The notes below the pieces were generated by a model, which worked only from the letters and a program-made list of their open reading frames with translations, was not told where the DNA came from and searched no databases. A stretch of DNA of 11,553 nucleotides from a virus. The position numbers were made by a program, and so were the translations under genes. Positions 2,941 through 11,553 of this stretch are shown piece by piece (position 1 is the stretch's first letter; the number at the start of each line of letters is the position of its first letter). Location of the stretch: the UHGV virus genome UHGV-0047852; one strand, 5' to 3'.

Positions 2941-2961
2941 AAAAAAGGAGCCTGTAGCTCC
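2941..2961 (-). terminator. Intrinsic terminator on minus strand (GGAGC-ctgta-GCTCC followed by U6) between orf61-like and TraR-like genes
   Basis: Plus strand AAAAAAGGAGCCTGTAGCTCC; on the minus strand this is a hairpin followed by a TTTTTTATT tract. Confidence 0.5.
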
Positions 2962-2983
2962 CTGATGATTTTGCTTTTCATGT

Positions 2984-3199
2984 TCACCGTTCCTTAAAGA
3001 CGCCGTTCAACATGCCGATCGCCAGGCTTAAATGAGTCGGTGTGAATCCCATCAGCGTTACCGTTTCGCGGTGCTTCTTCAGTACGCTACGGCAAATGTC
3101 ATCGACGTTTTTATCCGGAAACTGCTGTCTGGCTTTTTTGATTTCAGAATTAGCCTGACGGGCAATACTGCGAAGGGCGTTATTATGTTCTATTGTCAT
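2984..3199 (-). CDS. Lambda orf61-like small protein (71 aa from MTIEHNNALRSIARQ…)
   Basis: Internal ATG at 3199 has a GAGG SD 5 nt upstream; the 117-aa track ORF is an N-terminal over-extension. The C-terminal two-thirds matches my recollection of lambda orf61. Confidence 0.65.
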   Translation of the reverse strand: MTIEHNNALRSIARQANSEIKKARQQFPDKNVDDICRSVLKKHRETVTLMGFTPTHLSLAIGMLNGVFKER

Positions 3200-3206
3200 A
3201 TTGGCC

Positions 3207-3958
3207 TCACACTTCGAATGCCAGTTGAGGGGTAAAGACGTCCCGTTCAGCGTTGTAATTAAGTGAACTGGCACTGTTGAATGATTCAATGCGTTCCACA
3301 AGAACTTGCGTACGGGTTTCTTTACTTGCGGGAGCATATGGCGAACCTACCCAGGATTTGTCGATGCCTATATTTCTTGCGACGTTCGTGCTGTCTGCAG
3401 ACGAAAGCGGTACATGAGTAAAAATGTCTTTATTTAACATCCGTAACCCATGAATCTTGGTGATTGGGTAGCCGTACTGATCTACAACATGACGTATAAG
3501 ATCGCGTAGTTTAGCCCGACACGCTCTCGGTCGTTTTGCATCGTATTCCCCCATCGAGCCGATGCAGACGCGGGGAAACTCATGGCACAGACGAATAAAT
3601 CGCTCATCTGGTTCGTTCATGTGCCACACCGGAGCACCAATAAATTTACCGTGAGGCCATGCCGCAATCAGGGCGTCATTCTCTTCACTGGTTCCGCCGA
3701 TAACATCCGGGATAACCGCGAATGAGAAACGAGGGTGATTGCCCCAGCGTTCAACAAATTGTAATATTCATTCCAGTCTACGGCCTTGTTTTTTGTCCAG
3801 AATGTGAATGCACCATTATCAAGAGCAAATGATTGGGTGACTTCGGAAGCCAGATCAATCTGAGCTGGATTAGCAAAACTGATGAATGCGTGTCTGCCTT
3901 TCCAGGCTTTCAACGCACAGGTATCGGGAGTTATTGGACCACCGTGAAAATGAATCAT
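3207..3958 (-). pseudogene. Frameshifted gene for an unrecognised protein of about 250 aa (N-terminal part [31 protein letters not shown]…; C-terminal part …AVIPDVIGGTSEENDALIAAWPHGKFIGAPVWHMNEPDERF…QLAFEV) occupying the lambda orf63 position
   Basis: Two adjacent minus-strand ORFs (3668..3958 and 3207..3629) in different frames; extending the downstream frame upstream gives continuous plausible protein back to about 3768, so a single 1-nt indel near 3760-3770 would join them. The ATG at 3958 overlaps the orf60a-like stop (ATGA). Confidence 0.6.
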
Positions 3959-9437: not shown

Positions 9438-9821
9438 ATGCGTGATATTCAGATGGTTCTTGAGCGTTGGGGAGCGTGGGCGGCTAATAATCATGAAGAT
9501 GTGACCTGGTCGTCCATTGCCGCCGGTTTTAAGGGATTAATTCCTTCAAAAGTAAAATCTCGCCCGCAATGTTGTGACGATGACGCGATGATCATTTGCG
9601 GGTGCATGGCCCGTCTGAAAAAGAACAACAGCGATTTGCACGATTTATTAGTAGATTATTATATAGTCGGTATGACATTCATGTCACTGGCAGGTAAGCA
9701 TTGCTGCTCTGATGGTTATATCGGGAAAAGGTTACAAAAGGCTGAGGGCATAATTGAAGGGATGTTAATGGCATTAGATATCCGGTTAGAGATGGATATC
9801 GTTGTTAATAACTCTAATTAA
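9438..9821 (+). CDS. quuD: Late-gene antiterminator Q (QuuD-type, 127 aa)
   Basis: Translation [60 protein letters not shown]… matches DLP12 QuuD; GGAG SD 7 nt upstream. Confidence 0.9.
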
Positions 9822-9844
9822 TACGCCAATTATTTACTAAAAGT

Positions 9845-9872
9845 TATTAAAAATGGGGCGTTGAAACGCCCC
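9845..9872 (-). terminator. Hairpin GGGGCG-ttgaaa-CGCCCC with U-tract on the minus strand; candidate terminator for nmpC
   Basis: Perfect 6-bp GC stem; reverse complement is followed by ATTTTTAATAACTTTT. Confidence 0.45.
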
Positions 9873-9960
9873 CAAAAATAAAGGGTAATATATAACAGAA
9901 GGTTTGTATAGTTAGAAGCAAGGTTGTGCTTCTAAAGGAAGTGGCTTGAGGGAGCCACTT

Positions 9961-9999
9961 ATATGTTGGGGAGGCAAAGCCTCCCACAACATATCTTTT
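9961..9999 (+). terminator. Long hairpin (ATATGTTGGGGAGG-caaa-GCCTCCCACAACATAT) followed by CTTTT; candidate terminator downstream of quuD
   Basis: 14-bp stem with one bulge plus a short U-tract, 11 nt before the convergent nmpC stop. Confidence 0.45.
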
Positions 10000-10009
10000 A
10001 GTAATCAAA

Positions 10010-11092
10010 TTAGAACTGGTAAACCATACCTACAGCAACGATATCATCGGTAGCAACGCCAGATGCTTTCGTGAAATCGCTCTTATCAATCAGGTTGATT
10101 TTGTAGTCAACAAAAGTGGACATATTTTTGTTGAAGTAATAGGTTGCACCTACATCAACATACTCAACCAGGTCCTGATCACCCCAAACACCCAAGTCTT
10201 TTCCTTTAGAATGCAGGTAAGCAACGGATGGACGCAGGCCGAAGTCGAACTGATATTGTGCAACAGCTTCGAAGTTTTGTGCTTTGTTGGCAATATGGTT
10301 ATTACCAAAAACAGTCATGTTCTGGGTTTCAGAATAGGTGGTGGCCAGATAGATGTTGTTCGCATCATATTTCAGACCAGCTGCCCATACTTCAGCATTT
10401 TGACCAGAAGCATTCAGACCGTTGTTACCGTAGATAACCTGATTATTAGTGCGATCAGATTTAGCATAGGTTGCACCCACGCCGAATCCTTCATACTCAT
10501 AAGTAGTTGAGAAACCGAAACCATCGCCATTAGTTTCAGTTACTTCATTTCGGTCATTTTTGCCCTGATACTGAGCTGCAAAGTTCAGGCCATCAACCAG
10601 ACCAAAGAAGTCGTTGTTACGATAAGTTGCAACACCTGTGGTGCGACCAGTCATGAATACATCTGTTTGGGTCCAGGTATCGCCACCGAATTCTGGCAGA
10701 ACGTCGGTCCATGCACCAATATCGTATGCTACACCGTAGTTACGGCCATAATCGATGGAGCCGTAGTCACCGAATTTCAGGCCAGCGAAGGCAAGACGGG
10801 TTTTATCTTTGGAGGAACCTTGAGATTCAGCGCGGTTGCCTTTGAATTCATATTCCCACTGACCGAAACCAGTCAGTTGATCGTTGATTTGGGTTTCACC
10901 TTTGAAGCCAAGACGGGCATAAGTAGTATCACCATCATCTGCATCATTAGAGGAGAAGTAGTGCTTAGCATTAACTTTCCCGTACAGATCCAGCTTGTTA
11001 CTGTCTTTATTATAAATTTCAGCTGCCTGAGCAGACATCGCCATCAGTACTGATGCAGCTACAGCAGAAATTGCCACTGTTAATTTTTTCAT
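10010..11092 (-). CDS. nmpC: Outer membrane general porin, NmpC/OmpC family (about 360 aa with signal peptide [23 protein letters not shown]), apparently intact
   Basis: Signal peptide then [16 protein letters not shown], typical of OmpC/OmpF/NmpC porins; C-terminal …VAVGMVYQF ending in Phe. Opposite strand to quuD, as nmpC is in DLP12. Confidence 0.9.
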
Positions 11093-11478
11093 CGTGAGAC
11101 CTTTTTTTGAACATTTATTAAAAAATGATGCCCTGCGCGACAAATATTCATCTAATCAATGTGATTAATTCAAGATGTAAGTTTTAGATTCTTATTTAAA
11201 TTGTGATCTAGATCTCTATTTTTATCTGAACTTTTTCTAATGCATGCTGTGCATGACTATTCTCTGAAAGAAAATAAATTTGGTAGCTAAATTATATTAA
11301 AGGTTGTTATTTATAAGTGTTCTATAATTCATCTCTTTAATTTAAATTCACTGAAAATAACGTCGGAAATTATTTAATGATTATTTGTTTATTTTTCCTT
11401 ATGTGATTGTGGTGGTGTTTTGAACACTCGATATCATTCTCACAAATATTGTTTAGAGGTTTACGTACGTAAAAAATT

Positions 11479-11553
11479 GGGTAATGACTCCAACTTATTG
11501 ATAGTGTTTTATGTTCAGATAATGCCCGATGACTTTGTCATGCAGCTCCACCG
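11479..11553 (-). mobile_element. IS1 terminal fragment (23-bp terminal inverted repeat GGTAATGACTCCAACTTATTGAT plus the 3' end of insB), continuing beyond the window
   Basis: The 75 bp match the reverse complement of the IS1 right end (…CGGTGGAGCTGCATGACAAAGTCATCGGGCATTATCTGAACATAAAACACTATCAATAAGTTGGAGTCATTACC) as I recall it. Confidence 0.85.

Follow-up and report, generated by a model that had tools for sequence, protein, structure and literature searches.

The window analysed here, a stretch of 11,553 nt from the virus genome UHGV-0047852, carries two convergent genes separated by a gap of 188 nt. On the plus strand lies quuD, a gene for a Q-type late antiterminator (9438-9821, stop codon at 9819-9821), which was identified from the annotation under the matches and mapped from positions 2957-3340 of the K-12 locus (L001). 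On the minus strand lies an nmpC/lc-type porin gene (10010-11092, stop codon at 10010-10012), which is intact and whose transcript bears the small RNA IpeX. The earlier note had named these two genes as the flanks, and their ends at 9821 (plus strand) and at 10010-11092 (minus strand) agree with this. The true start of the porin is the ATG at 11092 (360 aa), as placed by identity to the N-terminus of K-12 NmpC; the mechanical list of open reading frames stretches the porin frame to a TTG at 11143 (10010-11143 in the window, 377 aa). In K-12 nmpC is broken by IS5, whereas in the window it is intact.

Four near-perfect hairpins are packed into the gap, and all of the inverted repeats that had been claimed there were found, with coordinates that were exact or at most 1 nt off. 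Hairpin 1 (9855-9872, minus strand; GGGGCG(TT)/(AA)CGCCCC) is the Rho-independent terminator of nmpC/IpeX, as indicated by a terminator scan and by Term-seq ends, and its U-tract in the minus-strand reading occupies 9849-9853. Hairpin 2 (9912-9935, minus strand; TTAGAAGCA/TGCTTCTAA; 9 bp, 6-nt loop) and hairpin 3 (9939-9960, minus strand; AAGTGGCT/AGCCACTT; 8 bp, 6-nt loop) belong to the structured body of IpeX; the former had been placed at 9913-9934, where it is indeed present but with a stem one pair longer. Hairpin 4 (9961-9994, not assigned to a strand) has a stem of 15 bp, which a single bulged base (9986) divides into two segments, and is the first structure 3' of the nmpC stop codon on the minus strand. 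The U-tracts described for two of the hairpins are also there: hairpin 1 is followed by AUUUUUAAUA on the minus strand and hairpin 4 by CUUUUAG on the plus strand. The terminator scan calls hairpin 1 on the minus strand; on the plus strand it does not call hairpin 4, which we attribute to the bulge in the stem.

The 173-nt stretch at 9840-10012 folds into exactly the same four hairpins on either strand, and this folding is well beyond chance: the minus-strand energy was -58.5 kcal/mol, as compared to -29.5 +/- 3.6 kcal/mol for 200 dinucleotide shuffles (z -8.1), and none of the 200 shuffles matched it. However the palindromes fold equally well on the plus strand (z -7.9), which counts against the best explanation given below.

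The hairpin cluster is an already described small RNA, namely an allele of the known ipeX. In MG1655, ipeX occupies 574365-574531 on the reverse strand (167 nt; supplementary table, PMC8313858). In NC_000913 the nmpC coding sequence begins at 574529 on the reverse strand and quuD ends at 574339; therefore the nmpC stop codon is where ipeX begins, and quuD is the gene toward which it is read. Mapped via L001 and by alignment, these coordinates correspond to 9847-10012 on the minus strand of the window (166 nt, vs 167 nt in K-12), and thus all four hairpins lie inside IpeX, within the 3' untranslated region of the nmpC/lc-type porin mRNA. The RNA so placed follows the nmpC stop codon directly, has the orientation of the porin gene and stops at the terminator of that gene (9872-9855). 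The ipeX of the window differs from that of K-12 by ~9 substitutions and a 1-nt indel, none of them in the unpaired linker that separates hairpins 1 and 2. Over 186 of its 188 nt, the gap as a whole is 95.2% identical both to the listed strains derived from K-12 and to the region downstream of PA-2 lc (J02580). It was found in ~2,510 of the 5,426 complete E. coli genomes (~46%) and in 36 phage records, which include the 1986 PA-2 lc sequence J02580.

Reviews describe IpeX as a 167-nt DLP12 RNA that derives from the porin transcript and is processed from a longer precursor; in the literature it represses OmpC and OmpF, though not OmpA, and it has been seen by RNA-seq. Against Rfam no match was obtained at the gathering score, and those at E up to 10 were at chance level; Rfam 15 appears to be without an IpeX model. 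The RefSeq feature table of MG1655 does not list ipeX either, and the two absences are probably the reason that the feature looks unannotated. The earlier note had judged the cluster denser than a bidirectional terminator needs and had offered RNA processing or stability elements, or a small stable RNA, as options. Both points agree with the four hairpins lying within annotated IpeX (167 nt in MG1655) and with the region coinciding with that small RNA; the right kind of element was therefore among the options, but the known ipeX had gone unrecognised. Taken as a whole, the best explanation of the locus is very probably that the hairpin cluster is the ipeX gene and that the prophage porin mRNA ends in this small RNA as its 3' untranslated tail, with the linker as the proposed working part.

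RNA 3' ends were taken from the published Term-seq of MG1655 (PMC7815308, supplementary file 1), the table of which covers three growth conditions. Minus-strand 3' ends at 574367 and 574366, from two separate parts of the table, map to 9849 and 9848 in the window, i.e., to the end of the U-tract after hairpin 1. Thus in the K-12 copy, where the RNA has a discrete 3' end at this position (574366/7), hairpin 1 is a working terminator of nmpC/IpeX. A third minus-strand end in the same dataset (574476) maps to 9958, which is 3 nt past the base of hairpin 4 and between hairpins 4 and 3. As the minus strand has no U-tract there, a product of termination is less likely than one of processing or of an exonuclease stop; the end hints at cleavage between hairpins 4 and 3, and a shorter form of IpeX, ~109 nt long and beginning with hairpin 3, may be defined by it. 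Shortly after the IpeX terminator, a Rho-termination region is listed at 574331 on the minus strand (PMC7815308; ~9813 in the window, within quuD and antisense to it), and Rho therefore appears to stop transcripts that read through hairpin 1.

On the plus strand, on the other hand, no 3' end is listed between 574300 and 574599 in the MG1655 Term-seq (PMC7815308), which is weak evidence because the K-12 prophage is largely silent. Published 3'-end mapping of the two strands in K-12 thus places ends at hairpin 1 and past hairpin 4 on the minus strand and none on the plus strand. Of the two terminators that had been proposed, one per strand, that of the minus strand at hairpin 1 is borne out by both the scan and Term-seq, while that of the plus strand at hairpin 4 consists of a CUUUU after the stem, with neither a scan call nor a listed K-12 end. 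Judged from its sequence, hairpin 4 with this CUUUU probably halts plus-strand transcription leaving quuD.

The four hairpins are kept in DLP12-like prophages, where the earlier note had suggested looking for them, and in free phages as well. We gathered 47 haplotypes from BLAST matches and from IMG/VR contigs that were found by a 23-mer of the linker, and aligned 25 of the distinct IpeX sequences among them. Across these 25, the four-hairpin structure kept 96.7% of its pair cells, as compared to 41-48% when the partners were slid, and the stem of hairpin 1 was paired in 99.4% of cells. Leaving aside positions that the search pattern had fixed, 14 of 76 stem sites were variable, as compared to 31 of 67 sites elsewhere (Fisher p = 0.0005), a contrast that was not significant once singleton haplotypes were left out (p = 0.11). 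The variation concentrates in the loops, the bulge at 9986, the spacers and the AU-rich stretch by the stop codon. The commonest stem variant (9931 T>C, in hairpin 2) keeps a G-U pair in the minus-strand RNA only, and one haplotype family lacks the two loop-proximal pairs of hairpin 3. Transitions that preserve pairing through G-U favour the minus strand at five sites and the plus strand at three, a weak and not decisive difference. No compensatory double change was found in any stem among the 25 haplotypes; their divergence is too low for covariation to give a verdict on the structure either way, and the argument for an RNA structure is therefore one from thermodynamics and conservation.

The linker, by comparison with the rest of the gap, hardly varies at all. 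Its positions 9875-9905 were invariant in 11 of 11 haplotypes that had been retrieved by BLAST independently of the linker, and it was 100% identical in 2,498 of ~2,507 E. coli records, whereas the whole gap was at least 99% identical in only 243 of 2,512. Among GTDB species representatives the linker 23-mer was found only in three Escherichia genomes, with no distant homologues.

This linker (9873-9911, minus strand; 39 nt) separates hairpin 2 from the terminator. No other long segment of the fold is unpaired, and on account of the duplex predictions and its invariance the linker is the proposed seed. Duplexes were computed in windows between IpeX and positions -150 to +60 of the K-12 ompC, ompF, ompA and nmpC mRNAs, with the opening costs of both partners included; full-length duplex folding gave meaningless long-range pairings, and the windowed version was used instead. 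For ompC, IpeX nt 109-123 (9890-9904) is predicted to pair with -21 to -7 (duplex -20.3, total -14.3 kcal/mol) in a run of 15 contiguous pairs, 14 Watson-Crick and one G-U, across the GAGGG Shine-Dalgarno sequence. A second helix is formed by IpeX nt 129-137 (9876-9884) with ompC -31 to -23, and with both helices the linker and the ompC initiation region share 24 bp (15 + 9) at -26.4 kcal/mol. For ompF, IpeX nt 116-133 (9880-9897) pairs with -15 to +2 (duplex -15.2, total -10.7 kcal/mol; the best total, -10.9, belongs to a slightly longer duplex). The best site in ompA is distant from the start codon (duplex -14.6, total -5.9 kcal/mol), and nmpC offers nothing useful (duplex about -10, total -0.6 kcal/mol or weaker). 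The positive control, MicF with ompF, gave a duplex of -14.5 and a total of -11.8 kcal/mol.

Shuffling set these values apart. The 15-bp ompC run was equalled by one of 2,000 dinucleotide shuffles of IpeX, and the ompC duplex of -26.4 kcal/mol by one of 2,000 shuffled linkers and by none of 2,000 shuffled targets. The linker duplex with ompF (-18.8 kcal/mol) was equalled by 42 of 2,000 and 19 of 2,000 shuffles (p ~0.01-0.02), while those of the linker with ompA and nmpC were no better than the shuffle means. Hence IpeX, as computed on K-12 targets, holds an accessible segment that is complementary to the ompC initiation region beyond chance, in the manner of MicF, and the computed pattern (ompC above ompF, with ompA and nmpC at background) matches the reported repression of OmpC and OmpF. 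On the plus strand, the letters at 9876-9904 (AAATAAAGG GTAAT ATATAACAGAAGGTT) nearly reproduce the ompC leader (AAAUAAAGG C AUAUAACAGAGGGUU). The match is laid out as 10 nt, the G-U position and 4 nt, which is too short for the default BLAST word; no homology of the linker to porin leaders was found beyond ~30 nt. In the searchable literature, which did not include the original 2006 paper, we found no description of an IpeX-ompC duplex, and IpeX was absent from the searchable Hfq CLASH supplementary tables. The sequence has a U-rich stretch, the terminator and a U-tail, and the U-rich stretch next to the terminator is a likely Hfq site.

We therefore consider a model in which IpeX is a direct antisense regulator, its linker (9876-9904) pairing with ompC -31 to -7 and with an overlapping match at the ompF Shine-Dalgarno sequence; on the duplex predictions we give this about an even chance. 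The RNA is read on the minus strand from the nmpC stop codon (10012) to hairpin 1 and ends at ~9848. In this model, hairpins 4, 3 and 2 would form a compact nuclease-resistant body, in which hairpins 2 and 3 probably serve as RNase protection or as a protein-binding platform. The linker would pair with the Shine-Dalgarno region of ompC (24 bp, two helices) and, more weakly, with that of ompF, and the pairing would keep ribosomes from binding, as pairing with MicF does for ompF. The leader of the phage porin itself, not being complementary, would be spared. The U-rich end of the linker, the terminator and the U-tail could together act as an Hfq-binding module, and hairpin 4 with its CUUUU would probably also stop transcription leaving quuD.

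Direct pairing is the likeliest mechanism on present modelling, though its prospects set against a protein-titration or indirect model are about even. The principal rival holds that IpeX is real but acts without base pairing, its hairpins titrating or recruiting a protein (RNase E, ProQ, Hfq or another) or acting indirectly, so that the linker complementarity is incidental; we regard this as possible but the less probable account. The original ipeX study by Castillo-Keller, Vuong and Misra of 2006 speaks for it, as it reportedly found no complementarity of ipeX to the ompC leader. That study reportedly proposed a mechanism other than simple pairing, and reportedly found the ompC effect to be Hfq-independent and the ompF effect not. 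The literature on IpeX and Hfq is otherwise mixed, with one source calling IpeX Hfq-independent, and a review says that the mechanism does not rely on complementarity only; moreover three packed hairpins with conserved stems exceed the needs of a small RNA made of a seed and a terminator. However, an incidental match would have to be a 24-bp one that is centred on the ompC Shine-Dalgarno sequence and equalled by at most one in 2,000 shuffles, and it would have to fall by accident in the sole long unpaired segment, which is essentially invariant in ~2,500 genomes while loops and spacers vary. The order of the predictions, ompC and then ompF, with ompA and nmpC at background, also mirrors the reported phenotype. 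A long duplex would also explain Hfq-independence: a long ompC duplex and a shorter ompF duplex would account for the Hfq-independence reported for ompC only.

The remaining readings are less likely. That the cluster is merely a pair of back-to-back terminators insulating quuD and nmpC, with hairpins 2 and 3 as neutral palindromes, fits hairpin 1 as a minus-strand terminator, the resemblance of hairpin 4 to a plus-strand one and the lack of covariation in any stem; it is nevertheless improbable in view of an annotated small RNA that is detected by RNA-seq and has a reported phenotype, of the conserved stems and variable loops that hairpins 2 and 3 show among the haplotypes, and of the K-12 data, which contain no plus-strand 3' end. 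Less probable still is that the hairpins belong to a plus-strand late leader, with a pR' just after quuD and a 6S-like or StxS-like RNA ending at hairpin 4. In many lambdoid phages, e.g., VT2-Sakai, pR', qut and tR' do follow Q directly, and a T-run follows hairpin 4 on the plus strand, but the gap holds no plus-strand promoter-like site and Term-seq no plus-strand 3' end. The reading was rejected, as the homologue of promoter, qut and terminator lies beyond nmpC, between nmpC and essD: K-12 L001 6195-6277 is homologous to the annotated late promoter, Q-utilisation site and terminator of VT2-Sakai and other Stx phages, and it contains a strong terminator on the plus strand (L001 6254-6275). 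The least credible of all is a small protein, encoded by a 53-codon frame at 9847-10008 (minus strand) or by the short frames annotated in phage records. The former is in the mechanical list, and the records of phages 434, Chlobot and PA-2 carry features here that are labelled 'hypothetical protein' or ORF1; yet the TTG start overlaps the nmpC stop codon and palindromes dominate the sequence, and we rejected this reading as well, as the haplotypes differ by 1-base indels (after 9995, at 9874-9875 and near 10002) that disrupt the frame.

The late promoter being beyond nmpC, the porin gene, IpeX and the terminators constitute a moron between Q and its promoter. In K-12 the nmpC-essD interval at L001 6195-6285 shares 77-85% identity with pR', qut and tR' as annotated in Stx phages, and its terminator reads AAACCCGCCGTCGAGCGGGTTT plus a T-run. 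This similarity gives the interval the look of the late promoter, qut site and terminator of DLP12; such a segment would yield a short StxS-like leader RNA, and it is unannotated in the RefSeq record. In the window, the left part of the pR' homologue (the -35 region; 11459-11480, plus strand; homology to Stx-phage annotation via K-12 L001), GGTTTACGTACGTAAAAAATTGG, is interrupted at 11480/11481 by an IS1 end, GGTAATGACTCCAACTTATTGATAG... (11481-11553). This tail matches a multi-copy element that is annotated as IS1 transposase in nearly all E. coli genomes. No high-identity full-length match to 11459-11553 was found in the 5,426 complete genomes, from which the junction appears to be absent. 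The late operon of the prophage is probably uncoupled from QuuD in the window.

The nmpC-ipeX module is a repeated target of insertion sequences. For example, a ~700 bp insertion lies between hairpin 4 and the nmpC stop codon in one locus (L120 3864-4566), with a 9-bp duplication of 9991-9999; IS1 lies directly after the IpeX terminator in another (L129 6807-7340), at window position 9840; an IS5-like element sits at 9885 inside the linker in a third (L013 1565-2758), where most of nmpC is lost; and in K-12 IS5 sits in nmpC (L001 3592-4786). An apparent inversion of the module in L129 was rejected, as it is the IS1 insertion that adjoins the terminator. At the left edge of the moron, an imperfect inverted repeat of 20 nt (9802-9821 and 9834-9853, 80% complementary) frames both the stop codon of quuD and that side of the IpeX terminator on which the U-tract lies. 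In phage Lambda_ev087 (L003 2516-3574), a QuuD-type Q gene is 88% identical, with homology ending ~24 nt before the stop codon, and a reverse-oriented lipocalin Blc moron follows Q in place of nmpC-ipeX; therefore the slot after Q takes alternative cargo.

As a feature of the genome, the cluster is ordinary, i.e., an allele of a small RNA described in 2006, and the complementarity of the linker to the ompC and ompF ribosome-binding regions is possibly its sole new point. Its setting is a phage moron that carries a replacement porin and a host-porin silencer in one transcript. OmpC is the receptor of PA-2, and silencing of host porins would therefore serve superinfection exclusion. If the model of direct pairing is true, the transcript of the phage porin silences the host porins by occluding their ribosome-binding sites and spares its own, and the pairing revises the original conclusion, which was reportedly that there is no complementarity. 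If functional, the complementarity would also provide a testable mechanism of action for a small RNA described in 2006, and would explain why repression of ompC, with the long duplex, can be Hfq-independent and that of ompF, with the shorter one, is not.

Among known systems, the closest is IpeX of DLP12 and PA-2 itself. The element of the window shares with it the position from the nmpC/lc stop codon up to the terminator, the strand, the four hairpins, ~95% identity and, at the equivalent base, the 3' end mapped in K-12; it differs from K-12 IpeX in being an allelic variant with an intact porin upstream, where K-12 has IS5. With MicF there is no sequence relationship. Under the pairing model, however, both would present an unpaired segment across the Shine-Dalgarno/start region of a major porin mRNA, and the energies predicted for IpeX are similar to those of the MicF-ompF control; MicF has a gene to itself and a seed at its 5' end, whereas IpeX forms part of a 3' untranslated region and its predicted seed is internal, between hairpins. 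Compared to the lambda 6S RNA and StxS, the pR'-tR' leaders, IpeX is likewise a short structured RNA downstream of the Q gene that ends at a terminator, but it is read from the other strand and shows no homology to their promoter or qut site. CpxQ, SroC and DapZ are small RNAs derived from 3' untranslated regions that share the terminator of their mRNA. Like them, IpeX comes from the end of a coding transcript, uses the Rho-independent terminator of the gene and is reportedly processed; unlike them, it is phage-borne and more heavily structured.
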